In this document: positions 7,460 to 63,236 of the stretch, one piece after another | How the letters are laid out: each line of letters opens with the position of its first letter | How positions within the stretch are numbered: the stretch's first letter is position 1 | Assembly: GCA_038062895.1 (NCBI GenBank) | Contig: JBBTWJ010000003.1 | Coordinates: 114,448-178,447 of the forward strand | DNA from: Patescibacteria group bacterium | GTDB taxonomy: Bacteria; Patescibacteriota; Microgenomatia; UBA10105; UBA927 | Reading direction: 5' to 3' | Length of the DNA: 64,000 bases | Program-made: the position numbers and the translations under genes | The notes under the pieces: model-generated | What the model was told of the DNA's origin: nothing | The model's input: only the letters and a program-made list of their open reading frames with translations | Database searches by the model: none

Positions 7460-8499
7460 TTATTGTTTCTCTTTAACAATTTTTTCGCCAAGCGGTCAAA
7501 ATCTGATACGTAGTTTTTGTCCTGTATTTTTTTATATTTTTCATACTCAGCAAGGGCAAGAGTTTCTGCTACTTCATGGCTGATTCTTCCGGCGTCACCT
7601 AGAATTTGTCGCTCGTTAAATTTCAGAAAGGCGTTCAATCGTGATACCCAGTCCTTCATATACATGATAATCCCACGCTTTGCTTGCATTTCTGCATAGT
7701 CGAGGTACATAGTCACAATTCTGTTTAAGTGGTCAAGTTCTCTTTCATTCAAATAGTTTTTGGCGATCACGACATCTGACTCTCGAATGGTACCCTTTGG
7801 AGAATTTTTCCAAACAGTGAGCCCCATATATGACTTGGTACTATCAGCTCTTTCGTGTACTATCTCTGAGGCAGTTTTACCGGTGATGGCAAAGTGGAGT
7901 TTGTTTTGCACTGTTGCAAAAAATTGTTTGGTAATTTCTTCATCGGAATCATAATCAGCGCTGCACTGAGCGTAAATATCGGTAATTTTTTGATACATGC
8001 GCCTTTCGCTTGACCGTATATCTCGTATTCGTGCAAGCTGTTCCTCAAAATAATCCTTTCCAAAAATATTGTATGGGTCTTTTAGTTTCTCGTCATTCAT
8101 TGTAAATCCCTTGATGATATATTCTTTCAATCTTTCCGTCGCCCATATTCTAAATAGAGTCGCCTGCCGACTACTCACTCGATAACCAACAGAAAGAATA
8201 GCGTCAAGGTTGTAAAATTCCACATCTCTGGTAACCAGACGTTTCCCTTCATTTTGAACTTGTGCAATTTTTGCACTCGTTGAATTTTTGTCTAACTCGC
8301 CTTCCTGAAAAATGTTTTGAAGATGTTTGGTAACTACGCTTCTCTCCACACCAAAAAGATCGGAGATTTTTGCTTGCGTCAACCACACGGTTTCATCGCG
8401 CAAGAAAATCTCAACTTTTACCTGACCGTTTGGGGTAGTGTAAAGGAGAAACTCCGTAAAGCTATTATTTGGAACGATTTTTTTGTTGTTTTTTTTCAT
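7456..8499 (-). CDS. RhuM-family protein (DNA-binding protein typically clustered with restriction-modification loci)
   Basis: Strong match to the RhuM core (DLFGVERSVVTKHLQNIFQEGEL ... LSVGYRVSSRQATLFRIWATERLKEY); its start overlaps the helicase stop by 4 bp. Confidence 0.75.
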   Translation of the reverse strand: MKKNNKKIVPNNSFTEFLLYTTPNGQVKVEIFLRDETVWLTQAKISDLFGVERSVVTKHLQNIFQEGELDKNSTSAKIAQVQNEGKRLVTRDVEFYNLDAILSVGYRVSSRQATLFRIWATERLKEYIIKGFTMNDEKLKDPYNIFGKDYFEEQLARIRDIRSSERRMYQKITDIYAQCSADYDSDEEITKQFFATVQNKLHFAITGKTASEIVHERADSTKSYMGLTVWKNSPKGTIRESDVVIAKNYLNERELDHLNRIVTMYLDYAEMQAKRGIIMYMKDWVSRLNAFLKFNERQILGDAGRISHEVAETLALAEYEKYKKIQDKNYVSDFDRLAKKLLKRNNK

Positions 8500-13185: not shown

Positions 13186-14049
13186 CTAGCGGAATTCGGA
13201 AAGAAGTGTATCCAAATCAAAGCTCCCAAGTGGTTGGTTTGCCAGCGGACCTGCGGCCAACGCCGGCTCACGATCTTCACTCGTCGGGGCTGCTTCCCGG
13301 TAAAACACACCGAGGGGAATCTTATCTCCCCATTCAAACGCTTTTTCAATAGCCGCGAGGCGATTATCGGGCACATACTTGACTGAATCGAGTTGGTACA
13401 ACCGAGTCCGATACCATTGATACGTATGGACGTGATTGAACGTGACGCATGGCTGCAAAATATCAAGAACGGAAAACCCCTTATGCTTGATCGCCTCGGC
13501 TATAAGCTTGGTGAGTCCCGGCATGTCACCGGCAAACCCACGCGCGACGAACGTCGCACCGGAAACCAGGGCTAACGCCAACGGATTAACCGGCGTATCC
13601 ACGACCCCCTCCGGGGTAGATTTCGTCTTGAGATGATCCTTCGCCGTGGGAGAGGCCTGTCCCGTCGTTAAGCCATACACCTGATTGTCATGGATGAGAA
13701 CCGTGATATCCGGATTCCGTTTCGCCGCATGGATAAAGTGATTACCTCCCTCGCCCAAACAATCACCATCTCCCGCAATGGCAATGACTGGAATCGTATG
13801 ATTGGCAAGCTTCGCGCCTTGCGCTATCGGCAATGACCGGCCATGAAGGCCTTCGACTCCATAGGTGCGCATCCAGGCGCTCATATTCCCATGACAGCCA
13901 ATCCCATAAACAAAAAGAGCGTCATCCGGGCCGATCCCAAGCTCAACCAATGCGTTTTTGAGTGCCATCCAGATACCGAAATCCCCACACCCCGGACACC
14001 AGGTTGGAAGGTAACCGGTTTTAAAACTGTCTGCAGTGATGGATGTCAT
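13186..14049 (-). CDS. korB: 2-oxoacid:ferredoxin oxidoreductase beta subunit (TPP-binding)
   Basis: CPGCGDFG thiamine-PP/FeS-proximal motif and the GDGD TPP-binding region. Confidence 0.85.
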   Translation of the reverse strand: MTSITADSFKTGYLPTWCPGCGDFGIWMALKNALVELGIGPDDALFVYGIGCHGNMSAWMRTYGVEGLHGRSLPIAQGAKLANHTIPVIAIAGDGDCLGEGGNHFIHAAKRNPDITVLIHDNQVYGLTTGQASPTAKDHLKTKSTPEGVVDTPVNPLALALVSGATFVARGFAGDMPGLTKLIAEAIKHKGFSVLDILQPCVTFNHVHTYQWYRTRLYQLDSVKYVPDNRLAAIEKAFEWGDKIPLGVFYREAAPTSEDREPALAAGPLANQPLGSFDLDTLLSEFR

Positions 14050-14052
14050 ATG

Positions 14053-14092
14053 GTTACTTAGTTACTTAGTTACTTAGTTAGTTGCTTGGTTA
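14053..14092. repeat. tandem octamer GTTACTTA x3 plus degenerate copies, abutting the korB start codon
   Basis: Read directly from the sequence in the korA-korB intergenic leader. Confidence 0.5.
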
Positions 14093-15862: not shown

Positions 15863-15870
15863 ATCTTTAA

Positions 15871-15906
15871 CAATACAACAACCTGACAATACAACAAATT
15901 GACAAT
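15871..15906. promoter_or_regulatory. direct repeats TGACAATACAACAA (two copies plus a half copy) in the 66-bp divergent region between korA and the ANL ligase
   Basis: CAATACAACAA at 15871-15881 and 15887-15897, TGACAAT again at 15900; the same AACAATAC unit recurs four times inside the ligase CDS. Confidence 0.4.
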
Positions 15907-15928: not shown

Positions 15929-18319
15929 ATGCGACGATCGACTACTATATATAGTATGAATGATCTACCGCGGGTCCGACTACCTGTAAACTCTGTCGAA
16001 GAATTACTCGCAAGTCACGCGGGTACATATGCTGATAAAGCGGCGCTCATCGCGGTTCACGTAGATACCGACGAGATCAATACGATTTCTTACCGCGAGC
16101 TGAACATCCTGGTCGGCCGGGCGGCAGCGTGGCTTTCCTCTCTGGGCATCAAGCGCGGTGACCGGTTTGCAATCCTCATGCCCAACGCTCCGGAAGTCAT
16201 AATCCTGGAACTGGCCGGTGCGATAATCGGGGCCGCAACGGTCCCGCTGGATTCCAAACGCGATACCATAGAACGCAAACTATTCAAATTAAAAGACACC
16301 GGCGCAAAAGCAATCCTTATCAAACAAGAGGAAAAATCTGCAGAAGAAAGAGAAACTCTTGCACAGGCATTACCGCATCTCACAATCCGCACATGGACCA
16401 CGTTTGGTGAATTTCAAACCATACTGACAGGGCCAGGCCCTGTCACTCACGCAAAGGGATCGCTTGAGGACTACTACGTGATCCTCTATACGTCAGGGAC
16501 AACCGCGCTTCCCAAAGGAGTCCTTCTTTCCACACGAGCGTGCCTGTTAAACGCTATGGGCATCCTACAGTGGCAACAATTTACTCACGATGATGTCTTT
16601 TCTATTGTGCTCCCGCTTCATCACATCAACTCGACAGAATTTAGTCTTGCTATGATACTCGCCGGCGGTACGATCGTTCTCAATTCCCGCTATAGCGCAA
16701 GCCACTTCTGGCAGGTAATCAACCGCTTCCGGATAACCAACACGAGTGTCGTTCCCACGATCCTCCACGATCTTCTTACCCGTGTCGATGAATTTATATC
16801 ATTACACCTGGATGTATCCTCACTTAAACGCATCTGTATCGGTTCAGCTCCTGTACTACCAGAAGAAACAATGCGATTCTACGATTCATTTAAGGTACGA
16901 GTCACTCAAGGATATGGCCAGACCGAAACTGCGCTGCGCGTGGCCGGTGTGCCGGTAGACACAAACGAAGAGACGTACCGCGAATTTGTCAAAAGCAACA
17001 CGATCGGTACCGAGCTTGCCAATAATCACCTCGCAATTATGGACGGGAATAATAATGAAAAGAACGAAAGCGAGGAGGGGGAAATATGCATAGCCGGCCC
17101 AATTCTCGCCGGTGGATACCTCAATAACCCGGAGGAATCAACAAAATCATTCAAAAATAGCTGGTTTCATTCCGGCGACCTCGGGTACTGGAAAATGATC
17201 GACGGCAAAAAATATTTCTTCATCATCGGGCGTATCAAAGAAATCATCATCAAAGGCGGAGTCAACCTCTCACCGTCTGCCATAGAAGATGCACTTCTCA
17301 AAGCATTTCCCCAAATCGATGAGGTGAGCGTCGTGGGATACCCGGATGCGCGTATGGGGGAAGAAATTGCAGCGGTTATAGTCTTGACAGGGTTGGACCC
17401 TGTCAAACAACAGGGCTCAACCCTAGCGGACAAATTTGTCCAATTAGTTTTAGATGCTGCTCAAAATGGAAAAATCTCCGGACTTTCCCGTTATGAGTCG
17501 CCCAAAAAGGTATTTATTGTCGATACCCTCCCGAAAACCTCGACCGGAAAAATCCAAAGAGTTGAGATAAAAAAAAGTGTTGCCACACGTATCAAAAGCG
17601 AGCACCCCCACCATTACTATGTCCGCACCATTGCTAATCATGAGACGGAAATCATGAAACAGGCTCTCAAGATAAATAACGCGCGGTTTCCGTTTATTCC
17701 ATCACTATTGGAGGAATTTATTGCTCGAACACAAAATGGGCTCTTTTTCGGTGTTTTTGATGAATCTGAAGGTCTGATCGGTTCTCTCTCCTGTATCAGG
17801 ACGAACCATACGATGATAGAAAAGGTCAAAACGTGGAATGAAGCAACCGCAGAGGGAACGCTCGCAAATCACGATCCCCACGGAGATACGCTTGCATGCG
17901 TGGCGATCTCTGTCAAAACAACATCGAACAATACAACAATACAACAATACAACAATACTAACGAAGATACATTACAACGCCTCGCAAAAAAATATATTAA
18001 AGAATACGTAAGTTTGGACAAAGATCACGTGCTAAATTTTCATAAACGATCCAAGGGAGGAATCCCTGGGGCTACGGTATGGAAAATTTTGGAAAACGGC
18101 AGACGGGAAGATAAAGAGGCCATAGGGTACAACGTCCTCATGAAGTATCCTACCATCGATGTATCCACAACTATTATCCGGAGTAACGCACCCTCTCCGG
18201 CAATTCTTCTCATCGAACACGCACTTCTTTACGCGAAAGAGCATGGAGTAAAAGATGTCATTGCGTTCTCCCGTCCTTCGGGGTTTCGAAAATATCTGGC
18301 AGAAAAACTACGGATATAA
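15929..18319 (+). CDS. ANL-superfamily adenylate-forming enzyme (acyl-CoA synthetase-like) fused to a ~250-aa C-terminal GNAT-like domain
   Basis: A3 YTSGTTALPKG, A5 GYGQTE, A7 YHSGDLGYW, A8 GRIKEIIIKGG, A10 PKTSTGKIQR; the C-terminal domain ends ...AILLIEHALLYAKEHG, which is acyltransferase-like. Confidence 0.7.
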   Translation: MRRSTTIYSMNDLPRVRLPVNSVEELLASHAGTYADKAALIAVHVDTDEINTISYRELNILVGRAAAWLSSLGIKRGDRFAILMPNAPEVIILELAGAIIGAATVPLDSKRDTIERKLFKLKDTGAKAILIKQEEKSAEERETLAQALPHLTIRTWTTFGEFQTILTGPGPVTHAKGSLEDYYVILYTSGTTALPKGVLLSTRACLLNAMGILQWQQFTHDDVFSIVLPLHHINSTEFSLAMILAGGTIVLNSRYSASHFWQVINRFRITNTSVVPTILHDLLTRVDEFISLHLDVSSLKRICIGSAPVLPEETMRFYDSFKVRVTQGYGQTETALRVAGVPVDTNEETYREFVKSNTIGTELANNHLAIMDGNNNEKNESEEGEICIAGPILAGGYLNNPEESTKSFKNSWFHSGDLGYWKMIDGKKYFFIIGRIKEIIIKGGVNLSPSAIEDALLKAFPQIDEVSVVGYPDARMGEEIAAVIVLTGLDPVKQQGSTLADKFVQLVLDAAQNGKISGLSRYESPKKVFIVDTLPKTSTGKIQRVEIKKSVATRIKSEHPHHYYVRTIANHETEIMKQALKINNARFPFIPSLLEEFIARTQNGLFFGVFDESEGLIGSLSCIRTNHTMIEKVKTWNEATAEGTLANHDPHGDTLACVAISVKTTSNNTTIQQYNNTNEDTLQRLAKKYIKEYVSLDKDHVLNFHKRSKGGIPGATVWKILENGRREDKEAIGYNVLMKYPTIDVSTTIIRSNAPSPAILLIEHALLYAKEHGVKDVIAFSRPSGFRKYLAEKLRI
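17927..17958. repeat. tandem octamer AACAATAC x4 inside the ANL-ligase CDS (encodes SNNTTIQQYNNT)
   Basis: Four perfect 8-nt units; 32 nt is not a multiple of 3 yet the frame is intact. Confidence 0.6.
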
Positions 18320-21517: not shown

Positions 21518-24130
21518 TTATCCAACACTTCCCTCCATTTGTAATTGAATAAGTCTATTTAATTCGACGGCGTACTCGAGCGGGAGTTCTTTGACGATGG
21601 GCTCGATAAATCCATTAACAATCATGGACTCTGCCTGTGCTTTGCCAATCCCGCGGCTTTCAAGATAAAATAGTTGTTCATCCCCGATTTTAGAAACTCT
21701 CGCCTCATGCTCGATCGACACATCCTGCTCATCTATCTTCATCGTGGGATAGGTATCGGAGCGCGAAGCAGCATCGAGCAGTAATGCGTCACAAACGACT
21801 TTACTTTTGCTGTTGGTGGCACCCGGGATTACTTGTACCAGCCCCCGGTACGACGTTCTCCCCCCGCCCCGGCTTATGGATTTGGAAATAATCTGTGATG
21901 TGGTTTCCGGCGCCAAGTGCACTACTTTCCCTCCTGCATCTTGATGTTGCCCTGCTCCGGCATAAGCAATCGAAAGGATTTCTCCGCGTGCTTTTCTCCC
22001 CACTAAATAGACGCTCGGGTACTTCATGGTGAGTTTGGAATTATGAACGATGAAGCCTTGTGAAATGAAATTGCCTGTCCCCTCAACTTCGATATCCCAT
22101 GTAGGAATCAGATCGGAGGACTGCTTAGAAACTACAACTGGCACTATCTCAACAGTGTTATGTAATGTAATGCTTGAGCGCCCGACGAGTCTATGCATTT
22201 GAAGTTTTTTTGTCGATCGCCCTAGTATTTGTTTACGCATACCCGTACTCACGAAGTTCGCAAATCTATAATCTATCGGAAAATCCAGCCTATACGCGCC
22301 ATGCGCGATAGATGACACACCTAAAATACGAACTCGTTTTGGTTGGCTGAATTCGACATGAAGTCGAGATGTAATTCCGAGCGTTACGAGAAGTGACGCA
22401 ATATCTTCCAAAAGCGGTCGATTGACCGATTTAATATGAAATCGGTCATCAATGTTCCCGTCGGCATCCAAGTAGCCTGCGATAAATGATAACCGTTGCG
22501 ACTGGGGAAGCGACCACACCCATTGAGGAACACGCTTAGTCGCTGCGGTACCTAAAAATCCGTTAAGGCGAAAAAGCTCTGTAATCTCTTTACTGCTCCA
22601 AGCGAGATGGTGACCATCGGATCGTTCGGTAGGTGCAATATTCGTCAACGTCCGCATACAACTCATTAAGCGTTCCCTTGCTCTATCTTGGCGAGGCGTC
22701 GAGAAACCAACTTTCGCCCAACGAATAACTCCTTTTGTTTTTCCAAAGCGCAAATCTATGTTGCCATCGCCAATCCAATACCCGAATAACCACATCATTG
22801 CATCATCTGTATGTGCTATTTTTATCATCCTGGCTGCTCTTATACGTGTCATTTTCAATGATGAAGCATACTGATTATATGATTCAAACGTTGTAATCAA
22901 CCCGGGCATCTTCAGTGAATATTGAGCACCATAATCAATAGAAACACGGGGAACAATTGCTTTTTTTAGCTGATCAGCACGGACGTATGCCAGTCGGTAC
23001 CGTCCGAGCTTCTTGGGTTTTTGGACATCGTATATATATGAATAAAATGGATGGTTAGCAGTAACTCTTAGTGTTCGTTTTCCGATGGAAACCGTATGTA
23101 CAGGTTGACGACCGGAAAAACGCTTCGCTTTTACTTTTTGGAAGCAGAGTATTCCTTTTTGGTCATCATAGGAGAGAACTTTATCACCTAACGCAAGAGA
23201 CTCAATTGTTTTCACTCCTTCGGGAGTAGTCACTGTCGAACCCTCTGCTAAACAACCTAAATTTCCGTCGACCCATTCCATGACGCCTTCCTCTTCTACC
23301 CGCGCGCGCTTGGTGACCAGGTTATAGACATTGGTACTCCAATTTTGGATGGTGGTGTAACGGACCCGCGCTCCCTTTTTCACAATGATCTCAACCACTG
23401 CGCTATGGAGTGAATCTGTCGTGTAAATGGGAGCGGTGCATCCTTCGACGTAATGGACGAAGCTCCCCTCCTCGGCAATGATGAGGGTGCGCTCGAACTG
23501 TCCCATGTTGGCCGCATTGATACGGAAATACGCCTGAAGCGGCAAGTCCACGCGTACGCCTTTGGGCACATACACAAATGAACCTCCGGACCAAACTGCG
23601 CTATTGAGCGCAGCAAATTTATTATCTCCGGGAGGAATAATGGTGCCAAAGTACTGTTTCACAATCTCCGGATGCTCACGAAGTCCCGAATCCATATCCA
23701 AAAAAATGACCCCTTTTTTGCTAAGCGTTTCATGAATACTTTTGTACACAACTTCCGACTCATACTGTGCGCTGACCCCCGAAAGAAATTTCTTTTCCGC
23801 CTCCGGAATGCCAATCCGGTCATACGTATCACGGATTTCTACCGGAAGATCCTCCCAGCGCGATGCACGTTTTTCCGTCGGATTAATATAGTAGTAGATA
23901 TCATCAAAATTGATAGTCGTGAGATCTCCCCCCCACGCGGGTAAGGGTTTGCGGAAAAATTGATCAAGCGCTTTCAGCCGGAACTGCCGCATCCAGGGAG
24001 GGTCATTTTTCCGTACGCTCAATTCTTCAACAACGGTGCGGTCGAGCCCTTTTTTTGATTTAAATACGTAATTTTCCGGCTTGCGGAAACCATATTTGTA
24101 ACTACCGTTTACTGGTTTAAATTGGAGCAT
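21518..24130 (-). CDS. sufB: FeS-cluster assembly protein SufB interrupted by a 405-aa intein
   Basis: Exteins total 465 aa and read as canonical SufB (...EWVDGNLG / SKLTMKYPSVYL...); the inserted segment starts with Cys and ends with His-Asn, followed by Ser. Confidence 0.9.
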   Translation of the reverse strand: MLQFKPVNGSYKYGFRKPENYVFKSKKGLDRTVVEELSVRKNDPPWMRQFRLKALDQFFRKPLPAWGGDLTTINFDDIYYYINPTEKRASRWEDLPVEIRDTYDRIGIPEAEKKFLSGVSAQYESEVVYKSIHETLSKKGVIFLDMDSGLREHPEIVKQYFGTIIPPGDNKFAALNSAVWSGGSFVYVPKGVRVDLPLQAYFRINAANMGQFERTLIIAEEGSFVHYVEGCTAPIYTTDSLHSAVVEIIVKKGARVRYTTIQNWSTNVYNLVTKRARVEEEGVMEWVDGNLGCLAEGSTVTTPEGVKTIESLALGDKVLSYDDQKGILCFQKVKAKRFSGRQPVHTVSIGKRTLRVTANHPFYSYIYDVQKPKKLGRYRLAYVRADQLKKAIVPRVSIDYGAQYSLKMPGLITTFESYNQYASSLKMTRIRAARMIKIAHTDDAMMWLFGYWIGDGNIDLRFGKTKGVIRWAKVGFSTPRQDRARERLMSCMRTLTNIAPTERSDGHHLAWSSKEITELFRLNGFLGTAATKRVPQWVWSLPQSQRLSFIAGYLDADGNIDDRFHIKSVNRPLLEDIASLLVTLGITSRLHVEFSQPKRVRILGVSSIAHGAYRLDFPIDYRFANFVSTGMRKQILGRSTKKLQMHRLVGRSSITLHNTVEIVPVVVSKQSSDLIPTWDIEVEGTGNFISQGFIVHNSKLTMKYPSVYLVGRKARGEILSIAYAGAGQHQDAGGKVVHLAPETTSQIISKSISRGGGRTSYRGLVQVIPGATNSKSKVVCDALLLDAASRSDTYPTMKIDEQDVSIEHEARVSKIGDEQLFYLESRGIGKAQAESMIVNGFIEPIVKELPLEYAVELNRLIQLQMEGSVG
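22040..23254 (-). mobile_element. intein with a LAGLIDADG homing-endonuclease domain inside sufB (residues 293-697)
   Basis: N-terminal CLAEGSTV splicing block, two LAGLIDADG motifs (LFGYWIGDGN and IAGYLDADGN), C-terminal ...FIVHN followed by +1 Ser. Confidence 0.85.
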
Positions 24131-24253
24131 AAGACATTAGAAATTCGTTCATCGATATTCGAAATTCGTAATAGAAATTCGAATTATAATAGAAAATCGA
24201 TTCTCTGTTATCTAATTTCGATAACGAATTTCCGGTTTCGATACATCGAAATT
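24131..24253. repeat. palindrome-rich intergenic element (GAAATTCG / CGAATTTC / TTCGATAACG units) between sufB and sufC
   Basis: Shares the blocks ATTCGTAATAGAAATTCGAA, TTTCGATAACGAATTTC and TATTTTCGA with the secF-secD intergenic element at 49181-49279. Confidence 0.5.
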
Positions 24254-25090
24254 CTATTTTCGAGATTGATAACCAGAATATCCTTCCTTCTCTATCTTCT
24301 TGGCGAGCTGGGCCGGGCCTGTTTTCACAATTTTCCCATCAACGAGAATGTGTACGACGTCCGGAGTGACGTAACGGAGAATCCGATTATAGTGGGTGAT
24401 AATGATGACCCCGGTTTTTTGTTTCCGTAGGATATCAATTCCTTTGCCAACCACACGCAGTGCGTCAACATCCAGTCCGGTGTCTATTTCGTCAAAAATA
24501 GCAATCTTCGGAGCCAACACTAATGCTTGGAGCATTTCCACTTTCTTCTTCTCCCCTCCGGAAAACCCATCATGAATGCTCCGCGATAAAAATGACTCAT
24601 CCAACCGAAGCGCACGGGCATGCTGTTTCACCAAAGAAGAAAATTCGGATAACCCCATGCCATTTGCTTGCCATCGCCGGGCAAGGACCGGATTTTGAAC
24701 GACGTGTTGCGCTTGTTCTATGGAAGGATGAATCTGTTGATATGCAGTCCGTAATAACTGCATCACGCTTATCCCGAGGATGGCTATTGGCGATTGGATG
24801 GCAAGATAGAGCCCTGCTTTCGCCCGTTCTTCAGTGGGCAACGAAATAATTTTTTTGTTTCCGATTGTGATTTGTGATTTGTGATTTGTGATTTGATAAG
24901 AGGGGTGTCCCATGAGCGCATAGGCAAACGTCGATTTTCCGCTTCCATTGGGCCCCATAATCACATGCACCTGTCCTGCGGCAACATCTAGAGAGATACC
25001 TTTTAATACCTCTTTCCCTTCCACTGAAGCATAAAGGTTGCCAACGTGAAGAGTTGAAGTTATATTTTTTGTTTTGGTAGATTTTTTCAT
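24254..25090 (-). CDS. sufC: FeS assembly ATPase SufC
   Basis: ABC ATPase motifs GPNGSGKST and LSGGEKKK; start at the ATG with AAGGAGG 7 nt upstream (25090), not the longer ORF. Confidence 0.9.
   Translation of the reverse strand: MKKSTKTKNITSTLHVGNLYASVEGKEVLKGISLDVAAGQVHVIMGPNGSGKSTFAYALMGHPSYQITNHKSQITIGNKKIISLPTEERAKAGLYLAIQSPIAILGISVMQLLRTAYQQIHPSIEQAQHVVQNPVLARRWQANGMGLSEFSSLVKQHARALRLDESFLSRSIHDGFSGGEKKKVEMLQALVLAPKIAIFDEIDTGLDVDALRVVGKGIDILRKQKTGVIIITHYNRILRYVTPDVVHILVDGKIVKTGPAQLAKKIEKEGYSGYQSRK
24866..24893. repeat. tandem heptamer TGTGATT x4 inside sufC (encodes QITNHKSQIT)
   Basis: Four perfect 7-nt units; 28 nt in an intact reading frame. Confidence 0.6.
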
Positions 25091-31494: not shown

Positions 31495-32370
31495 ATGATA
31501 GGAATCATATTTGCACTGCTTTGCGCTATATTTATAGGATTTTCCCAGATATCTCTTCGCAAAAGTTATAAGAAATTTCCTCCTTCTATCGCTTTTTTGT
31601 TTGACTCAATTTTTGGTTTATTGATTTGGGTTCCACTTGCCTTCTTTATGGGAATCTCTGGAACCGTAAACTGGGGACGTGCGATATTTTTTGCGATTGT
31701 TTCAGCCATCCTTTCTGAAGCCATTGTTTTTTACGCCTTATCACACGGAACATTGACTGTTACCGCTACAGTACTCGCAACATATCCAGTTTATACAGTT
31801 ATCTTTTCAAGACTGTTTAATAATGAAGTCCTCTCTGTTCAGATAACACTCTTTGTGATTCTAGCGATCTTGGGAAGCATAATCGCCAGCTTACCTGACA
31901 AAATCAAAACATCTGAAATAAAATTAAGCAAAGGAATCATGTGGCCATTCATCGCAGCCGTCTGCATTGGACTTTCAGATACTATTTCAAAGGGTTATAT
32001 TAATAGGTCGGGAAACTTTAGTTTCTTATTTTCACTAGGGTTTGTCCAGATTCCCATAGCGTTGGCTTACTTAAAAATTGAGAAACAATCCCTAATCAAA
32101 TCAATTGAAGGTGTCACAAAACGACTAAAGGAATATAAATTCGCATTACTAGGTGGTTTGTTCAATATTGTTGGAACTGGATTTCTGTGGTTAAGTTTTT
32201 CCTACGCTCCGGCTTCAATAGTCTCACCCATAACGGGGACTAGCGGGGCATTAACTGTAATCCTATCAAGACTCTTACTGAAAGAGAAAATCACGAAAAT
32301 AAAATATTTGGGAATTATATTTGCTTTTATTGGAATAATAGGGATAACCGTTTTGCGGACAAATTATTAG
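31495..32370 (+). CDS. DMT/EamA-family transporter
   Basis: Ten-TM pattern with duplicated EamA halves. Confidence 0.75.
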   Translation: MIGIIFALLCAIFIGFSQISLRKSYKKFPPSIAFLFDSIFGLLIWVPLAFFMGISGTVNWGRAIFFAIVSAILSEAIVFYALSHGTLTVTATVLATYPVYTVIFSRLFNNEVLSVQITLFVILAILGSIIASLPDKIKTSEIKLSKGIMWPFIAAVCIGLSDTISKGYINRSGNFSFLFSLGFVQIPIALAYLKIEKQSLIKSIEGVTKRLKEYKFALLGGLFNIVGTGFLWLSFSYAPASIVSPITGTSGALTVILSRLLLKEKITKIKYLGIIFAFIGIIGITVLRTNY

Positions 32371-32391
32371 AGACTCCGTCAATGGAACTGA

Positions 32392-33063
32392 CTAGTCTTC
32401 TATCACTCGACCGCCGAGGTCAGCAAAATCAGATTGCAGGGGCTTAGCATATATTATAGATCCTTTTCCATGAAAAATCTCAATAGTCCGCCCCAGGATC
32501 GCTGCCAATCTCATAGAGCCTGATCCGTTGGCCTCATCCTCCGGTATACCCCAATCCGGTGCAAATGTTCGTGCTCGGATGAGTCCCCTATGTTCATCTA
32601 TCCATGCCCAAATCAATGAGTGTTTAATGGTTTTAGTTTCTGATTCACTAAGACGCTCAACTTCGATCGGATTTTTCCGTTGTACATATTTCCAAGCCGG
32701 CAGCGTTGTTAGAGCCGCGCGGATCCATGTTTTGCCATCATCCATCCACGTTTTAATTGTACCTCCTTCACAAACAAGGGAATCAATTGGTTTATCGCCC
32801 GTTTTGTTCATGAACCACGCTGCGCCGACCATCGCATGACCCGCAAAGGGAACTTCGCTCCTAGGATTAAAGATGCTCACGCTACCGACGCTTACGTCAT
32901 TAATAAATACAGATTCACTGTAACCAAGATCCGTGGCGATCCGTTGACGATCATTTAAAACGATTTTCTTCCCTTCATCTTGTATGATTCCAACGGAATT
33001 GCCAAATTTTCCAACTTGGTTCACAAATACACGGAGGGTATGTATATTTAGGTGATTAGCCAT
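32392..33063 (-). CDS. PhzF-family isomerase-like protein (short)
   Basis: N-terminal LRVFVNQVGKFGNSVGII and C-terminal EANGSGSMRLAAIL blocks typical of PhzF. Confidence 0.65.
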   Translation of the reverse strand: MANHLNIHTLRVFVNQVGKFGNSVGIIQDEGKKIVLNDRQRIATDLGYSESVFINDVSVGSVSIFNPRSEVPFAGHAMVGAAWFMNKTGDKPIDSLVCEGGTIKTWMDDGKTWIRAALTTLPAWKYVQRKNPIEVERLSESETKTIKHSLIWAWIDEHRGLIRARTFAPDWGIPEDEANGSGSMRLAAILGRTIEIFHGKGSIIYAKPLQSDFADLGGRVIED

Positions 33064-33139
33064 ACTTAGTTATTATCTTGCGAATCTCATTGGTCTCGAA
33101 CCATTTAATCCGATAATTGCTACTCGAACAAGTTTGAGC

Positions 33140-33964
33140 TCATTTCAACTTACCTTCTATAACTTTTTTAAATAACCAGTCTATAAATCCTAAGTCTTCA
33201 AATATGTAATCAGCCATTAAAAATGGTTGAGCTACTCGCTCACCTGAGTGTGCCCTAAAGGGATGAATAATATTATTACGTATGCCATCACGCATTTCCT
33301 CCTCATAGTCCGTAAAATCAATTCCAGGATTATCTTTTTTAAGATATTCTCCTATTAAATCTATGACTTTATTTCTAGCATCTTTTCCTGAAAAACCATT
33401 TTTGAATTTTAAATGCTCAACTATAGCCTCATAAGCAATAAATGTATTATTGTAAGTTTCCTCTGCAAACAAGGAACTTGTATTTAATAAAATATAAGCC
33501 TTATAGAGGCACGCGCCAGCACGAACAAATAAATTATTTTTGTAGTCAAATTTCGTAACCAATTTTTTAACGTCATCTTCATCTATATCACGCTTATAGA
33601 AATGATATCCTCCATCGTTTGTATATTCGCAATATTTGTAGACTAATTGCATGCAGTCATCACGTGTAGGAAATTTATCCACCTTTTTTGTTTTATAGAA
33701 TGGTCCAAATCTTCGTACAACTGGTGTTAGTGCTCCCTCAACTAAATGCTCGCTTTCTAACTGAGCATGTCTCAATGCAGTAATAAATGGTATTTCTGAT
33801 CGAGTTACCCACGACATTTCTTGTTCAAGCCAATCGTCACTCTTTTTGATTTCAGTAATAATACCAGCACTATGAAATTGAGCCAGATAATAACAGTTTT
33901 TGACTTTAAAGATTCCTTCCAAGTGTGAATGTTTATTACTAAGTGGGGTAATTTTAATTAACAT
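33140..33964 (-). CDS. hypothetical protein in an AT-rich islet
   Basis: ORF with no recognisable motif; much lower GC than the flanks. Confidence 0.45.
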   Translation of the reverse strand: MLIKITPLSNKHSHLEGIFKVKNCYYLAQFHSAGIITEIKKSDDWLEQEMSWVTRSEIPFITALRHAQLESEHLVEGALTPVVRRFGPFYKTKKVDKFPTRDDCMQLVYKYCEYTNDGGYHFYKRDIDEDDVKKLVTKFDYKNNLFVRAGACLYKAYILLNTSSLFAEETYNNTFIAYEAIVEHLKFKNGFSGKDARNKVIDLIGEYLKKDNPGIDFTDYEEEMRDGIRNNIIHPFRAHSGERVAQPFLMADYIFEDLGFIDWLFKKVIEGKLK

Positions 33965-34092
33965 ATTTTAGACCTCGATCATGAAAGTCTAGTTACATGT
34001 CTGCCAATCTTATCTGAGTGGGCCAGTCAAGGCCCGTTTAGTCATTAAAGAATAAGAACGGGAAACCCAAACCTCGAATCATTTAACGGTAG

Positions 34093-34824
34093 CTATACTA
34101 TTCGTTTCCAACGCTTAAACGCTTTAACATCAGAAGAGTTTAATTTAAACCACTCACCTTTAATACATTTAGAAGAAAATCTTTTGTGCCAATAATCTTC
34201 TATGTGTACCATGTCATCTGTTTTTATTGTGTGTATGTAATCGAAATATTCTATCTGGTTTAAATTATGATCATTACGCCGTTGGTCTAAATTTTTGGCT
34301 CTACCAATTCTATAATGTTTGCCTCGTTTACCTAAATACACAAATCCGCTCTCTATCTTGTCATCCTCAGAAGTTTCATTTTCATTTTCATATTTTCCCA
34401 AAATTGAATTGCAAATATTTACTATATCATTGTACCCTCGTCGGCCTTCAACATATTCGAGAATTGTTAATGGCAAACCATCCTTAGTCTGACCAAGTCG
34501 ATTATAAAAAGTTGCTGAGGCGGGGAATCTAGAATTTTGACGGCGTTTAAAATCTAACTCATCTCTACTTGGCCATTTCCCTATTTCACGAATTAATTTG
34601 ATAAATTCGTCACATAAATCTTTCTTAGAGTATTTTGTTTTATCAAAATCTTGGGGAGTTAATCCGGCCTCACGCTGAATATCGGTAATTTTTGTCCAAT
34701 AGGTAATCCAATCCCATTTTGGTATTCTCAATTCTTCTCTTATTATTTTTTCACTTGGAGTACGTCCACCATTCTCCTTAGCCCATTTTCGGATTTCCTT
34801 TAAAATATCTTCTTTTGTCAACAT
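34093..34824 (-). CDS. N-terminal repeat plus C-terminal T5orf172 (GIY-YIG-like) domain protein
   Basis: Two N-terminal repeats (LKEIRKWAKENGGRTPS / FIKLIREIGKWPSRDEL) reminiscent of homing-endonuclease-associated repeats; C-terminus GFVYLGKRGKHYRIGRAKNL...GEWFKL matches the T5orf172 pattern. Confidence 0.5.
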   Translation of the reverse strand: MLTKEDILKEIRKWAKENGGRTPSEKIIREELRIPKWDWITYWTKITDIQREAGLTPQDFDKTKYSKKDLCDEFIKLIREIGKWPSRDELDFKRRQNSRFPASATFYNRLGQTKDGLPLTILEYVEGRRGYNDIVNICNSILGKYENENETSEDDKIESGFVYLGKRGKHYRIGRAKNLDQRRNDHNLNQIEYFDYIHTIKTDDMVHIEDYWHKRFSSKCIKGEWFKLNSSDVKAFKRWKRIV

Positions 34825-34916
34825 ATTTTTAATACATACGTCTAATTATAATTTAAAGCGTCCAATCGTGCTGCAGTGCTAGTGCCCTTTCGAGTATTTT
34901 CGAATCGATTATAGTC

Positions 34917-35189
34917 TTAAGCGTTCTTGAGCGCTATTTTATCATCATTTATCAACAATTCTTTCTTAATCCGTGACCACGTCTTTAATTGAGCCTCTCG
35001 TTTCATTGCTTCTGCCCGGGATATAAAACTTTCCTGATAAACAAGCTCAAAGGAATTGAAGAAACGTACATATTTAGCTGATTTACTTCCTTTAGTGCGA
35101 TGCTCTTCCAATCGTCGGATGAGATTGTTCGTTTGACCAGTATAAAAGGTATTCGAAGAGGTAAGGAGAATATAGACGGAATAAGACAT
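34917..35189 (-). CDS. small GIY-YIG nuclease-family protein (YhbQ/UPF0213-like)
   Basis: VYILLTSSNTFYTGQTNNLIRRLEEH GIY-YIG core. Confidence 0.75.
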   Translation of the reverse strand: MSYSVYILLTSSNTFYTGQTNNLIRRLEEHRTKGSKSAKYVRFFNSFELVYQESFISRAEAMKREAQLKTWSRIKKELLINDDKIALKNA

Positions 35190-35300
35190 ATCAGTTCATC
35201 CCTCGACTCTGGTTCGACTTCGCTCACCATTCGCTCGAGAAGTGCGACATTGATATTTCTGCCCCTCGATTACACTCGGGGTCTTCGCTTCGCTTCGAGC

Positions 35301-35369
35301 TGGGAGACCTGGATTCGAACCAAGATAAACGGATTCAGAGTCCGTTGTCCGACCATTAGACGATCTCCC
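35301..35369 (-). tRNA. tRNA-Gln (anticodon CTG), slightly short D-arm
   Basis: Minus strand GGGAGAT...ACGGA-CTCTGAA-TCCGT...CTTGGTTCGAATCCAGG-TCTCCCA; the T-arm is identical to E. coli tRNA-Gln. Confidence 0.6.
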
Positions 35370-35421
35370 AAAATTTAATCTACGAACCTACAAATGAAAA
35401 ATCTACAAATAACATACAAAT

Positions 35422-36282
35422 TCACTCCGGTAGGGTGATTATACCAGCTTTTGAGCGGGTGATTAAGCCGTCGGCCTCCAAACCCTGAAGGATGGATTGT
35501 AAAAAAGAGGCGGGTTTCGCGTATTTCTTTTTAAACTCTTTGATAAGGTTGCTTTCCTTTGCTTCCCCTTCCCGCAGGCGGTCAATAATGCGGCCGCGGT
35601 AAAATCGATTGGAGTCACGGAAAGGAATGGAAGTCCTTCGACTCACTTTGGTCAAAGACCCTGAGCGAGCGCGGACGAGTCGAAGGGCTCCGTAGTCCAT
35701 GAGGGCCTGGTGCCATTCCCAGGATTTACCGGGGGGTATCAGTTGACGGGCAATATCTTCAATTTCCTTTTCCAAGGCCCGGCCCTGCCTCGCCGGCAGG
35801 CGGGCTTGTGCCTGTTTGGGAAAAAAGAAGTGAGTGATGATCTGACGGATGTTTGTATCGACGAGCGGGACTTCCTTCTCGTAAGCGAATACTAATAGTG
35901 CTCGAGCAGTGTATGTACCCAGGCCAGGAAGCTTATTTAATAGTTCACAGTTCATAGGAAAATGACCGTTATATTGATCACAAATAATTTTTGCAGTCCT
36001 GTGGAGATACAATGCGCGGCGGTTATACCCCATCCCCTTCCAGACGCGAAGGACATCAGCGGGAGTAGCTTGAGCAAGATCACAAACCGTCGGAAATCGT
36101 TCGATAAACTCCGCATACTTTGGGAGGACCCGAAGTACTTGCGTCTGCTGGAGCATGACTTCTGACACCATGATCCGGTAGGGATCGCGCGTCCGGCGCC
36201 ATGGGAGGTCACGGCGGTGCGTTTTCCACCACAAAAAAATCTTTTGATGGAAAGAGATAATTTGTTTTTTGGATAGCTTCAT
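35422..36282 (-). CDS. HhH-GPD family DNA glycosylase (MutY/Nth-like, no FeS cysteines) with a C-terminal extension
   Basis: LPWRRTRDPYRIMVSEVMLQQTQV and the helix-hairpin-helix LPGLGTYTARALL. Confidence 0.75.
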   Translation of the reverse strand: MKLSKKQIISFHQKIFLWWKTHRRDLPWRRTRDPYRIMVSEVMLQQTQVLRVLPKYAEFIERFPTVCDLAQATPADVLRVWKGMGYNRRALYLHRTAKIICDQYNGHFPMNCELLNKLPGLGTYTARALLVFAYEKEVPLVDTNIRQIITHFFFPKQAQARLPARQGRALEKEIEDIARQLIPPGKSWEWHQALMDYGALRLVRARSGSLTKVSRRTSIPFRDSNRFYRGRIIDRLREGEAKESNLIKEFKKKYAKPASFLQSILQGLEADGLITRSKAGIITLPE

Positions 36283-36321
36283 GATGCGTCGTTATTATAC
36301 TCTGGATTCCAACGCTCGAGG

Positions 36322-36446
36322 GAATAACAAACGTGAATATACGGGAATGTACGGGAAATTAAAAAAATTAAAGAGATATTAGGAGTACTTACGAGAAATT
36401 AAGAGAAATTAGGAGAGGATTAAGGATTAAGGATAACAGATAACAA
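36322..36446. repeat. purine-rich degenerate direct-repeat patch (ACGGGAAWWTACGGGAA / GAGAAATTAAGAGAAATTAGGAGAGGATTAAGGATTAAGGATAAC)
   Basis: Longest member of a strand-biased intergenic family also seen at 41531, 44988, 48259, 61420, 62230 and 63200. Confidence 0.45.
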
Positions 36447-38841: not shown

Positions 38842-40230
38842 ATGAAACATATACGAACAAGGATCGCACCCTCACCGACCGGCGAAAACCTCCACATCGG
38901 CAACGCGTATACGGCGCTCATCAACTACGTGGTCGCCAAACAAAACAATGGACAGTTCATCATCCGCATCGAAGACACGGACCGGACACGATTTGTGGAA
39001 GGTTCTGAAACCAGAATATTAGCGTCGCTTGATTGGCTGGGTATTGCCCATGATGAAGGACCGGATATCGGAGGACCTCACAAGCCATATCGCCAGTCGG
39101 AGCGCCTAGAGATATATAAAAAATTTGCGGAAGAGCTTGTGGAGAAAGGACATGCATATTACTGTTTTTGCAGCCCGGAGCGGCTTGCCCAGATGAGGAA
39201 GGACCAGGAATCCCGACACGAACCGCCAATGTATGATGGAAAGTGTAGAACAAACAGCAGACAGCAGATAGCAGACAGCAGAGAAAACGGAGAAAAATTC
39301 GTTATTCGCTTAAAGGTGCCGGATGAGGGCACGACAACATTTACCGATCTGATCCGGGGAGAAATTTCTTTTGAAAATAAACTCATCGATGATCAGGTTA
39401 TCCTCAAGTCCGATGGGTTTCCTACCTACCACCTGGGCGTAGTTGTCGATGACCATCTCATGGAAATCTCCCACATCATCCGCGGCGAGGAATGGATTTC
39501 ATCGACTCCCAAACACATCCTCCTCTATCAATTTTTCTCATGGGAACTACCGATTTATGCCCATATGCCGCTCTTACGAAACACCGATAAAAGCAAACTC
39601 TCTAAACGAAAAAATCCCGTATGGGCATCCTGGTATAAGGAGCAGGGATTTCTGCCGAAGGCGGTCGTCAATTATCTAGCTACCATGGCATGGGCACATC
39701 CGGAAGGAAAAGAACTATTTTCCGTTGACGAAATGATACAGGTGTTTGATCTCAAAAATATCCAGACCACCGCGCCGATCTTTGATATTGAAAAATTACG
39801 GTGGATGAATGGGGAGTATCTAAGAAGGAGTCAAAAGTCAAAAGTCAAAAGTCAAATCTATAATTTTTATAACGGAAAATATGAGGAGGATATGATAGAC
39901 AAAACAGTCCCTCTCATTATAGAACGGATAAAAACGCTTGCAGAATATGAGGCGATGGCAGGATTTTTCTTTGAACGACCAAAGGAGTTAGAGCGACCGA
40001 TTAACGAGGCGTTATTGAAGATAACAAAGGAAGCGCTTGCATCCTGCGATTGGAATCATGAAGCTATGGAAAAAGCCATCCGGGAAGCCACGAATAAAGC
40101 GGGAATGAAGGTGAGGGACGTATTTATGGAGCTTCGTGTCGCCGTGACCGGTAAAACCGTCGGGCCACCGCTCCTGGAATCATTGGAAATATTGGGCAAA
40201 AAAGAAACTTTACTTCGTCTAAAAATATGA
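38842..40230 (+). CDS. gltX: glutamyl-tRNA synthetase
   Basis: PSPTGENLHIGNAYTAL (HIGH region), the LSKRK KMSKS-type motif, and a C-terminal anticodon-binding domain. Confidence 0.9.
   Translation: MKHIRTRIAPSPTGENLHIGNAYTALINYVVAKQNNGQFIIRIEDTDRTRFVEGSETRILASLDWLGIAHDEGPDIGGPHKPYRQSERLEIYKKFAEELVEKGHAYYCFCSPERLAQMRKDQESRHEPPMYDGKCRTNSRQQIADSRENGEKFVIRLKVPDEGTTTFTDLIRGEISFENKLIDDQVILKSDGFPTYHLGVVVDDHLMEISHIIRGEEWISSTPKHILLYQFFSWELPIYAHMPLLRNTDKSKLSKRKNPVWASWYKEQGFLPKAVVNYLATMAWAHPEGKELFSVDEMIQVFDLKNIQTTAPIFDIEKLRWMNGEYLRRSQKSKVKSQIYNFYNGKYEEDMIDKTVPLIIERIKTLAEYEAMAGFFFERPKELERPINEALLKITKEALASCDWNHEAMEKAIREATNKAGMKVRDVFMELRVAVTGKTVGPPLLESLEILGKKETLLRLKI
39255..39282. repeat. tandem heptamer CAGCAGA x4 (one copy TAGCAGA) inside gltX (encodes NSRQQIADSR)
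   Basis: Read directly; 28 nt in frame. Confidence 0.55.
39829..39856. repeat. tandem heptamer AGTCAAA x4 inside gltX (encodes SQKSKVKSQI)
   Basis: Four perfect units; 28 nt in frame. Confidence 0.6.
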
Positions 40231-41515: not shown

Positions 41516-41612
41516 GAAGAGCATTGTATCATAAGGATAATCCATAGAGGATTTTAGAGGAATTTGAAGGCGTTTAGGGGCTTTGGGGAATTTGGGGGAT
41601 TTAATCTGCGCG

Positions 41613-44987: not shown

Positions 44988-45030
44988 ATAGAGGATTTTA
45001 AAGGAATTTAGAGGAGTTTAGAGGAATTTA
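44988..45030. repeat. purine-rich repeat patch (TTTAGAGGAATTTAGAGGAG)
   Basis: Same family as 36322-36446. Confidence 0.4.
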
Positions 45031-48258: not shown

Positions 48259-48296
48259 AACGGGAGATTACGGGAATATACGGGAAGTTAAGGGAG
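48259..48296. repeat. purine-rich repeat patch (ACGGGAGATTACGGGAATATACGGGAAGTTAAGGGAGA)
   Basis: Same family as 36322-36446; sits in the convergent cca/secF gap. Confidence 0.4.
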
Positions 48297-49172
48297 ACGT
48301 ATTTTTCTTTTCTCCCACCTATCCCACAAAATCAGGATCGGGGTGGCGACAAACGGCGATGAGTACGTACCCGAAACCGTCCCGATGAGGAGTGCCACGA
48401 CAAACCACCGAACCGACCCCCCTCCCATAAGGATGAGAGCCAAAAGCATGAACATGATAGTAAATGAATTTGTAAGCGACCGGCCCATTGTTTCGGTGAG
48501 TGCCCGGTCGGCAAGCTCATCAAACCGTGTCTTTTCATCTCTCCTTCGATATTCACGAATACGGTCAAACACCACGATCGTATCGTGAACCGAAAAGCTC
48601 ATGGTGGTCAGAAATGCCGTCACAAATAACGTATCAACTTCCACTCCCCGCAATACCCCTAAAAGTGAAAATACACCGAGAACCACCAAAAGGTCATGGA
48701 GGAGAGCAATAATAGCGGACACTCCGAACTTGATATTTTTGAAGGCATACGCGACATAGGCCAAAATACAAAAAATGGCAAGCACTGCAGCCACAACTGC
48801 TTTTCCCAAAAGTTCGCTTCCTAACACGGGACCGACCGTTTCGTTGCGCAAGATAGTCGCCGTACTACTGGATTCCCGTTCTACCATTTGTGAAAATCCG
48901 GCGACATTATCGCTTCCTTCGGGCTTGATACGCAGAAGATACGTATTGCTTCCGGAACTAAGAATACTCGCAATCGGTAGGTCCTGCTTTCGGGCAACAT
49001 CAGTCAAAATATTTTCCGGGACCGGCCGATCAAATGAAAACTCCAGAAGCGTCCCCCCAGTAAAATCGATAGATGGCCGAAGACCGTAACGGACGATCGA
49101 ATAAACGCCCGGCACAAGAATCAACCCTGAAATGAGGGCGTAGAGCCAAAGATATTTAGAAAATCTAATCAT
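48288..49172 (-). CDS. secF: protein translocase subunit SecF
   Basis: Six-TM SecF layout with conserved periplasmic-loop motifs. Confidence 0.9.
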   Translation of the reverse strand: MIRFSKYLWLYALISGLILVPGVYSIVRYGLRPSIDFTGGTLLEFSFDRPVPENILTDVARKQDLPIASILSSGSNTYLLRIKPEGSDNVAGFSQMVERESSSTATILRNETVGPVLGSELLGKAVVAAVLAIFCILAYVAYAFKNIKFGVSAIIALLHDLLVVLGVFSLLGVLRGVEVDTLFVTAFLTTMSFSVHDTIVVFDRIREYRRRDEKTRFDELADRALTETMGRSLTNSFTIMFMLLALILMGGGSVRWFVVALLIGTVSGTYSSPFVATPILILWDRWEKRKIRLP

Positions 49173-49180
49173 ATAGCATT

Positions 49181-49279
49181 AGGATATTCGAAAGTCGTTA
49201 TAACGAAATTTGAGATTCGTAATAGAAAGTCGAAATACGATTTTCGATAACGTATTTCTATTTTCGAAACAACGAATTT
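49181..49279. repeat. palindrome-rich intergenic element (second copy) between secF and secD
   Basis: Shares the blocks GATATTCGAAAGTCG, ATTCGTAATAGAAAGTCGAA, TTTCGATAACGTATTTC and TATTTTCGAAA with 24131-24253. Confidence 0.5.
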
Positions 49280-63199: not shown

Positions 63200-63236
63200 C
63201 CCTTAAGGGAAATTAAGGGAGCTTAAGGGAAATTAT
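63200..63236. repeat. purine-rich repeat patch (CCTTAAGGGAAATTAAGGGAGCTTAAGGGAAATTA)
   Basis: Same family as 36322-36446. Confidence 0.4.

Follow-up and report, generated by a model that had tools for sequence, protein, structure and literature searches.

How do short tandem arrays whose unit length is not a multiple of three come to lie, and to stay nearly perfect, inside the reading frames of conserved housekeeping genes? The question is raised by a 64,000-nucleotide (nt) stretch of chromosomal DNA (hereinafter, the window) from an uncultivated member of Candidatus Gottesmanbacteria (Microgenomates, Candidate Phyla Radiation (CPR)/Patescibacteria) from the Hainich groundwater well H41. An earlier note on this DNA had pointed out six arrays of 7- or 8-nt units, in sufC, gltX (two arrays), recJ, the gene for an ANL-family ligase and just upstream of a korB-like gene. 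Non-triplet microsatellites are normally purged from essential genes. We observe that the arrays are inherited at orthologous sites across Candidatus Gottesmanbacteria and are uniform at the nucleotide level; judging from the sequences, they lie in parts of housekeeping proteins that tolerate sequence change, where they are read as ordinary if odd peptide. The explanation that we favor, with moderate confidence, is that the arrays are frame-locked intragenic microsatellites which are homogenised by slippage or template switching and are used as landing sites by REP-like mini-hairpins.

All six arrays are present where the earlier note had placed them, four of them perfect and two (39254-39282 and 46150-46181) imperfect:

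14053-14092, minus strand: intergenic octamer array, GTTACTTA on the plus strand x3.5, perfect over 14053-14080 and degenerate to 14092
17927-17958, plus strand: ANL-ligase octamer array, AACAATAC x4.0, perfect, peptide SNNTTIQQYNN
24865-24895, minus strand: sufC heptamer array, TTGTGAT x4.43, a perfect 31-nt run, CAAATCA x4.43 on the coding strand
39254-39282, plus strand: gltX site 1 heptamer array, ACAGCAG x4.1, one mismatch
39829-39856, plus strand: gltX site 2 heptamer array, AGTCAAA x4.0, perfect, peptide SQKSKVKSQ
46150-46181, minus strand: recJ octamer array, GTTACTTC-type unit x4.1, imperfect (88% matches)

The five intragenic arrays all lie in uninterrupted open reading frames (ORFs), as the note had claimed, and are read through as peptide. 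The sufC array encodes QITNHKSQIT, flanked by a conserved Tyr and by the Ile-Gly belonging to the strand-turn segment that follows the Walker A motif; the array at gltX site 1 encodes NSRQQIADSR, directly after the YDGKC cysteine motif; the ANL-ligase array lies in a hypervariable linker following the conserved 'AISV'; and the recJ array, which reads CGAAGTCA CGAAGTAA CGAACTAA CGAATAAC on the coding strand, encodes SRSNELTNN. The intergenic array lies upstream of the korB-like gene (13186..14049, minus strand), stopping 3 nt short of its ATG. The host genes are unrelated, and the arrays are not tied to any one place with respect to gene starts, gene stops or domain borders. Predicted RNA folding is 0.0 kcal/mol for four of the five intragenic arrays and -1.6 kcal/mol for gltX site 1. 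A disordered loop is not supported for the gltX arrays: an AlphaFold model of GluRS from a 30-sequence alignment (mean pLDDT 64, poor overall, and not used for fold searches) puts both in short predicted helices, with a local pLDDT of ~75-90. Elsewhere in SufC (24254-25090, minus strand), residues ~117-150 include ~20 extra amino acids (HPSIEQAQHVVQNPVLARRWQANGMG) compared with the solved structures 2d2e and 2zu0; the DNA of this segment contains no obvious array or hairpin.

The gene content of the window is that of ordinary housekeeping: the suf operon, GluRS, AspRS, RecJ, the CCA-adding enzyme, SecDF and Lon, as well as class I LysRS, GreA and korAB-like oxidoreductase subunits; NCBI names its proteins as those of Patescibacteria or Gottesmanbacteria. 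An Rfam scan of the window detected two tRNAs only and no known RNA family overlapping the arrays. The HIP1 motif (GCGATCGC) is not enriched in the window, which is thus not part of a cyanobacterial-type genome.

That the arrays exceed chance expectation, as the note had maintained, is borne out by shuffling. When codon order was shuffled 1000 times per gene and the longest period-7/8 run was scored, the longest runs reached 17-19 nt, against 28-32 nt observed; in protein-preserving shuffles, with synonymous codons permuted only, the mean run was ~13 nt. Assembly or sequencing artefacts can be set aside as well, given that independent assemblies of one groundwater population agree, with 99.98-100% identity over 14254-50230 (five assemblies, from four ENA samples plus a Logan assembly, over 28842-50230, and three over the sufC region); the sufC, gltX and recJ arrays each recur in between three and five of them. 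Proteins identical to the GluRS and SufC of the window are encoded on contigs of the ENA samples ERZ1292633, ERZ1292625, ERZ1292619 and ERZ1292628, and the identical GluRS is additionally found in the Logan assembly of ERR3858120. Orthologous arrays are present in unrelated NCBI, JGI and Logan assemblies that come from other studies, sites and assemblers.

The arrays were further compared among orthologous loci and proteins, here denoted by L- and P-numbers (for example, L086 and P0146), with DNA taken from NCBI, JGI and Logan assemblies. The arrays are much enriched in this lineage: 0.83 Mb of Gottesmanbacteria-like loci contain 19 perfect 7-nt arrays with at least 3 copies, whereas 1.10 Mb from other phyla contain 1, and period-7 rows of Tandem Repeats Finder (TRF) number 80 and 13, respectively. 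Both comparisons are inflated by the orthologous gltX arrays; the control loci from other phyla make up nearly all of the matches listed in the genome-collection scan with the gltX alignment. Period 7 dominates over periods 6 and 9, and array rows in long ORFs outnumber non-coding ones, 55 to 28 (again inflated by gltX). Perfect arrays form a narrow class of 28-34 nt, with none longer than 34 nt; this size class was initially taken as a strong sign of a fixed-length cassette and was then down-weighted because most of the perfect arrays are orthologous copies of the two gltX sites. Two Ignavibacteriales gltX loci (L048 9016-9048 and L056 9013-9045) show weak 7-nt periodicity, with 69-73% matches, ~1 kb into the gltX match, roughly level with site 2; this periodicity may be due to chance.

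The comparison of orthologues called for in the note detected arrays at matching sites in gltX, sufC, recJ and the ANL ligase across Candidatus Gottesmanbacteria, with differing units. Such recurrence in relatives implies that the arrays are genuine, that they are passed on by descent and that their uniformity is maintained in the DNA, an unusual situation for essential genes. In GluRS orthologues with 55-83% identity, the peptides at both gltX sites back-translate to 7-nt x4 arrays with other units, and the DNA confirms this. At gltX site 1, L086 has the ACAGCAG unit with a single mismatch at another place than in the window, and in other orthologues the site is taken up by AGCAAAC, AAACTAC, AAATCCG or AAGTCGA arrays or by ordinary sequence. 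At gltX site 2, arrays are found in 16 distinct orthologues in one codon register, with NNTCAAA-type and other units, including the following consensus units:

AGTCAAA: the window, L086, L090
TCTCAAA: L098, L142, L143, L148
ACTCAAA: L105, L145, L147
GATCAAA: L139
ATTCAGA: L095
TATCAGC: L088
TTGAAAA: L149

The sufC site contains AAATGCC x4 in L173, AAAGTCA x5 in L174 and an AAAGTCA-type unit x2 in L176, and in L172 and L175 it is occupied by arrays that are split by hairpins. The site of the recJ octamers is occupied by heptamers in L087 (an array of GCATTCA x4.9) and by perfect hairpins in both L088 and L093. Some orthologues of the ANL-ligase linker contain related peptides, and others have differing array-like or hairpin-like strings of varying length. 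Many orthologues have no array, a decayed array, or a hairpin instead. A third gltX site, a direct repeat of the palindrome ACCTTTAAAGGT (peptide RPLKVxPLKV), was identified in several orthologues (L091 2719-2749, L095 9153-9183, L100 9159-9189, also L118 and L127) and is absent from the window.

The synonymous shuffles and the observations that follow support the conclusion that the arrays are kept perfect by a process acting at the DNA level and not by selection on the protein. At gltX site 2, the mean unit identity is 0.918 within a genome, a value that is partly high because the 16 arrays were picked for periodicity, versus 0.687 between orthologous units, the flanking 120 nt being 0.635 identical. 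The actual argument for concerted evolution is that lineage-specific substitutions occur in all four units: AGTCAAA, TCTCAAA, ACTCAAA, ATTCAGA, TATCAGC and TTGAAAA are each uniform over all or nearly all four copies of the respective array. Part-converted arrays also exist, with three of four units changed in L139 and with alternating units (period 14) in L148 and L112. Identical residues of the window and L086 or L090 are encoded by the same codon in 50-53% of the cases outside the arrays, compared with 18 of 19 (L086; P=3.5e-5) and 10 of 10 (L090; P=0.002) inside them. The variation among the site 2 units extends over the entire unit and involves any base, without adenine specificity.

Coding constraints are apparent within the units, too. 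In the L149 array (gltX site 2, 4381-4413), the sole deviant unit among TTGAAAA x4 is TTTAAAA, at precisely the position at which a perfect copy would bring a TGA stop into frame; this array is perfect up to the limit set by its coding function. The coding-strand arrays are A/C-rich irrespective of the chromosome strand of the gene, nearly all of them have 0-2 G per unit, and neither strand contains G runs. Of the 21 observed units, 14 would include a stop if reverse-complemented. Units are sometimes shared between loci of one genome. In the window, the intergenic unit GTTACTTA (14053-14080) is identical to the recJ unit GTTACTTC (46150-46181) in 7 of 8 positions, and the 12-mer ACAATACAACAA is common to the array in the ANL-ligase gene (17928-17955) and to a further repeat (at 15870-15897) located before that gene:

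15869-15906, plus strand: 16-nt repeat, x2.3, immediately upstream of the start of the ANL-ligase gene

The two gltX arrays of L087 have a unit in common, and so do its two recJ arrays. This sharing hints at copying between arrays.

With respect to frame and length, the claims of the note require correction. The statement that any copy-number change would cause a frameshift does not hold for three-unit steps: the sufC arrays of L174 (5 units) and L176 (2 units) differ by three units, that is, exactly 21 nt, with flanks that otherwise match, so copy number can differ between orthologues in in-frame three-unit steps. Array copy numbers of 2, 4, 5 and up to 6.7 units were observed. The proposal that the arrays replace rather than add to normal protein segments is accurate for gltX site 2, where more distant orthologues have ordinary sequence of exactly equal length, and nearly so for sufC, where the array segment of the window protein is 2 amino acids longer than in the solved Thermus thermophilus SufC; it fails for recJ, where orthologues without array or hairpin are 4-11 amino acids shorter, and for the CCA-enzyme hot spot, at which L093, L103 and L120 have a minimal loop with no insert whatever. 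The x4 copy number was also considered as proof of a single +21-nt expansion, which was rejected for gltX site 2, array and non-array lengths being equal.

The second component of the system consists of small GC-rich hairpin elements of 21-36 nt, which are cleanly inserted inside arrays, in phase and without target duplication. An identical 36-mer hairpin is present in both gltX arrays of L087, a 21-nt hairpin lies inside the CAAATCA array in sufC of L172, and further hairpins within arrays were found in L146, L175, L097 and L088. The mini-hairpins are multi-copy across genes and genomes, and the peptides RRRQSGYGASAT, PPAGRAG and PPKADQP[LM]A recur among sufC, gltX and recJ. At the CCA site and at two sites in recJ, arrays alternate with perfect hairpins of a longer kind, which have stems of 13-16 bp and arms that are lineage-specific and fully compensated. 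Predicted folding energies of the hairpins range from -11 to -30 kcal/mol. The window contains the following:

35784-35804, minus strand: 21-nt GC mini-hairpin CCCGCCTGCCGGCGAGGCAGG, in frame in an HhH-GPD glycosylase gene, peptide ARLPARQ
45738-45775, minus strand: perfect hairpin in recJ, arms AAGGCCAGGCCTT / AAGGCCTGGCCTT, -25.7 kcal/mol
46727-46755, minus strand: double GC mini-hairpin CCGCCAAAGGCGG + CCAGCCTATGGCTGG in the recJ N-terminus, peptide PPKADQPMAG
47094-47128, plus strand: perfect 13-bp-stem hairpin in the CCA-adding enzyme gene, at an insertion hot spot

The 21-mer CCCGCCTGCCGGCGAGGCAGG is found, identical and in the opposite orientation, inside the site 1 array of L097 gltX, and its peptide ARLPARQ is also encoded inside the gltX site 2 array of P0025; at 35784-35804, as in L121, the mini-hairpin occurs without any array. 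The 30-nt segment that holds the double mini-hairpin of recJ is missing from the L088 orthologue, and a peptide similar to that of this element, PPKADQPLAE, is encoded inside the sufC array of P0146. The site of the perfect recJ hairpin is occupied by a heptamer array in L087 and by another perfect hairpin in L088; the CCA hot spot contains AGTCGTC x4.3 in L087 and lacks any insert in the shortest orthologues. Two perfect palindromes in the ANL-ligase gene (16425-16445 and 17385-17405) belong to one family (TGACAGGG...CCCTGTCA) and are read in one frame, as LTGPGPV and LTGLDPV; none would be expected by chance. These palindromes were not counted as inserted elements and may overlap natively conserved motifs.

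If the arrays are frame-locked microsatellites, slipped-strand mispairing or template switching within an array would homogenise its units, as suggested by the concerted evolution and the partial conversions, with one unit copied over its neighbour and the length unchanged; the route could be a double slip, or else units might pair out of register and the mismatches then be corrected. Purifying selection would purge the frequent slips by +/-1 and +/-2 units, which shift the frame of an essential gene, so that the copy number would be locked and the array would persist rather than collapse. The L149 array, the in-frame three-unit difference in sufC and the orientation bias all point to selection against frameshifting copy changes and stop-creating units. 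The A/C-richness of the coding strand is probably due to the translation of each 7-mer in three frames, in all of which it has to be stop-free and to encode tolerable, mostly hydrophilic residues. Arrays would survive only where the protein tolerates the replacement. Self-templating on inverted repeats (quasipalindrome correction) might yield the perfect hairpins that alternate with arrays at shared sites, and the GC-rich 21-36-nt hairpins are likely to be a separate multi-copy REP-like family that prefers arrays as insertion sites.

Several considerations weigh against this explanation. We infer both the slippage and the length-neutral mechanism of conversion; the dominance of 7 (and 8) over 6 or 9 is not explained by simple slippage; frame-locking amounts to a survivorship argument; and the change of ordinary sequence to an array of equal length at gltX site 2 is left unexplained. 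Local slippage does not predict the sharing of units within a genome (GTTACTT[AC] at 14053 and 46150, ACAATACAACAA at 15870 and 17928, gltX and recJ of L087). The unit AAAGTCA is kept in lineages down to ~75% protein identity, so there could be selection on the sequence itself. The 28-34-nt size class, dominated as it is by two orthologous gltX sites, is weak evidence either way. A broader scheme, which we regard as possible albeit rather unlikely, is that a single self-templating regime, specific to the lineage, gives rise to both the arrays and the perfect hairpins and continually turns unconstrained segments of ~30 nt in essential genes into perfect direct or inverted repeats; its source could be a dedicated enzyme encoded by an element, or else the exonucleases or the mismatch repair by which template switching is normally aborted could have been lost. 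If so, Gottesmanbacteria proteins carry hypervariable cassettes that are set by DNA mechanics and not by protein function.

Hairpins and arrays repeatedly occur together (at both gltX sites, in sufC and, for L100 and L110, at the CCA site), all hairpin inserts at these sites are in array-bearing alleles, usually mid-array with ~2 units per side, and arrays and hairpins alternate at shared sites; along with the units common to several loci of one genome, this might suggest that the arrays are made by the machinery that mobilizes the mini-hairpins, as footprints, terminal repeats or target-site multiplications, in which case an array without a hairpin would be an empty site. We consider this unlikely. 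The inserts are clean and in phase within a continuing array, and the flanking units are not duplicated, which implies that the array came before the hairpin; moreover, one hairpin is flanked by different units at different sites, hairpins also occur without an array (window 35784-35804, L121) and most arrays are without a hairpin, and excision leaving 4 x 7 nt would not alone preserve the frame. There is no transposase-like gene within the window, nor did we find evidence of the repeat-seeding nuclease or integrase activity that had been offered as one possible cause. It is still less probable that the arrays are functional cis-elements selected for their periodicity, either as multimeric sites for a DNA- or RNA-binding protein or as unstructured A-rich mRNA that tunes translation or decay. 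Perfect arrays at matching sites over deep divergence, frozen synonymous sites, the unstructured, A-rich sense strand and the orientation set by the gene rather than by the chromosome strand would all fit this possibility, as would the preference for four units, which is shared with the heptamer arrays of Xanthomonas and Nostoc (PMC4692102). However, the unit sequence varies freely by lineage and site, so that a reader would need to recognise periodicity alone; many orthologues have no array, a decayed one or a hairpin with no sign of lost gene function; the genes are unrelated and the positions not comparable; and stop-codon and residue constraints account for the sense-strand bias.

A dedicated enzyme that writes ~30-nt patches by reiterative copying of a 7-8-nt template, with a primase-polymerase, a reverse transcriptase resembling telomerase, or repair that fills a gap across a lesion as candidates, would explain the length-neutral replacement (exact at gltX site 2) and the four-unit preference; perfect arrays are confined to 28-34 nt, with none longer, and reiterative templated synthesis typically uses 7-8 nt. 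Nevertheless, we deem such an enzyme quite improbable, given that part-converted arrays (three of four units, or alternating units) indicate stepwise conversion and not one-shot rewriting, that copy number varies (2, 4, 5, up to 6.7) and the size class comes mostly from two orthologous sites, and that no gene for a reverse transcriptase or primase-polymerase is present within the window. Non-triplet repeats in coding sequence are a hallmark of contingency loci, but classical phase variation, like an assembly or sequencing artefact, is hardly credible here, in agreement with the note on the former: the hosts are essential housekeeping genes (SufC, GluRS, RecJ), independent assemblies all agree and keep the frame, the features recur in assemblies of other studies, and ~4 units are not the long tracts typical of switching loci.

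We found no earlier reports of such arrays in CPR/Patescibacteria in the literature. The closest parallel is the STRR heptanucleotide arrays of cyanobacteria with nested small dispersed repeats (SDR), reportedly described by Elhai and coworkers in 2008. These also combine tandem 7-nt units with ~21-36-nt hairpins inside arrays without target duplication, and are lineage-wide and have no assigned function. The hairpins described here are likewise 20-40-nt multi-copy elements in arrays without target-site duplication. In contrast to STRR, which reportedly involve few genome-wide units, are mainly intergenic and often reach many copies, the arrays analyzed here have site-specific units, lie mostly in ORFs, are translated within conserved genes, contain ~4-5 units, and belong to a CPR host without HIP1 enrichment. 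Rickettsia palindromic elements (RPE) are tolerated in frame in unrelated housekeeping genes and are ~100-150 bp long (PMC10969869). The likeness is limited to our hairpins, which are palindromic repeats in frame in protein-coding genes; the hairpins here are only 21-38 nt in length, whereas RPE encode a conserved peptide and are not known to be associated with tandem heptamer arrays. REP/REPIN elements are marked by an extragenic location and an associated RAYT (Y1 HUH) gene; the hairpin elements here are intragenic, and the annotated ORFs of the 64-kb window, which is a part of the genome only, include no such gene.

The GGGNATC heptamer arrays of Xanthomonas and Nostoc show a clear four-copy preference (PMC4692102); these are G-rich, are proposed to form G-quadruplexes, and are mostly intergenic and under-represented in ORFs, whereas our intragenic arrays have an A/C-rich sense strand and cannot form G-quadruplexes. 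Template switching in Escherichia coli perfects quasipalindromes (PMC6357072), and in such switching on quasipalindromes or direct repeats, in E. coli and yeast, one arm or unit is copied over the other and the repeat is perfected, as in the arrays and hairpins here; it is known as a hotspot in laboratory reporters and is not described as shaping stable, lineage-wide features of essential genes. Contingency loci share with the arrays non-triplet, slippage-prone tandem repeats within reading frames; they are, however, surface, virulence and restriction-modification genes with long variable tracts and on/off switching, as opposed to short tracts with the frame always kept in SufC, GluRS, RecJ and the ANL ligase. 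A diversity-generating retroelement does not fit either, there being no reverse transcriptase within the window and no adenine-specific variation. Overall, the arrays differ from STRR, RPE and GGGNATC in being translated, in essential genes, of ~4-5 units and with site-specific units.

Non-triplet arrays thus persist, stay perfect and evolve in concert in SufC, GluRS and RecJ across a candidate phylum-level lineage, with protein stretches apparently dictated by DNA mechanics alone. For CPR bacteria, which are uncultivated and poor in repair, the arrays may provide a natural record of how slippage and template switching act, and their analysis uncovered a 21-36-nt hairpin family that is in frame within genes and appears to prefer arrays. 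In practice, the arrays are usable as strain or lineage markers and are a caveat for alignment-based phylogeny, dN/dS estimates and primer or probe design in these organisms.

Other repeats and genes were observed in the window. Intergenic arrays of 10-nt units with a GGG/GGA core (ACGGGAATAT, TAGAGGAATT, TTAAGGGAAA, TTTGGGGAA), with ~2-6 copies per TRF row, adjoin gene ends:

36331-36434, 41545-41602, 44989-45032, 48260-48297 and 63203-63235, intergenic: decamer arrays

These are a closer match to the GGGNATC class than the heptamers, and those with three or four GGG tracts could, by analogy with GGGNATC arrays, form G-quadruplexes. AT-rich 21-22-nt repeats with a palindromic core (TTCGAAAT/ATTTCGAA) are located at 24132-24263, between suf genes, and at 49240-49287, between secF and secD; similar ATTTCGA/ATTTCGG heptamer runs are found in intergenic DNA of L096 and L100. 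The 8-mer GAAATTCG, tested window-wide, is not enriched. The RRM_1 RNA-binding protein (55530-55949, minus strand) has a C-terminal tail that derives from TCCACC-type 6/12/24/36-nt repeats (55554-55673), Gly-rich on the coding strand; this repeat is ordinary and triplet-compatible, unlike the heptamers.

In other organisms, repeats and G-quadruplexes are substrates of Pif1 helicases. A PIF1-like helicase gene followed by a RhuM-family gene is found at 5909-8499 (minus strand) and, by analogy, may be relevant to a repeat-rich genome. The SufB protein (21518-24130, minus strand; 870 amino acids) has a LAGLIDADG_3 domain between two SUFBD_core halves and thus appears to contain an intein; SufB of L174 likewise shows a weak LAGLIDADG match. 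The region 32000-36300, with a GC content of 0.38-0.41 and Bro-N, T5orf172/MUG113 and GIY-YIG genes adjoining a tRNA (35300-35370), looks like a small island of selfish endonuclease-type genes. Finally, a 761-amino acid protein (2829-5114, minus strand) is an unusual fusion, in which a domain of class I lysyl-tRNA synthetase (tRNA-synt_1f) is joined to a B3_4 domain at the C-terminus.

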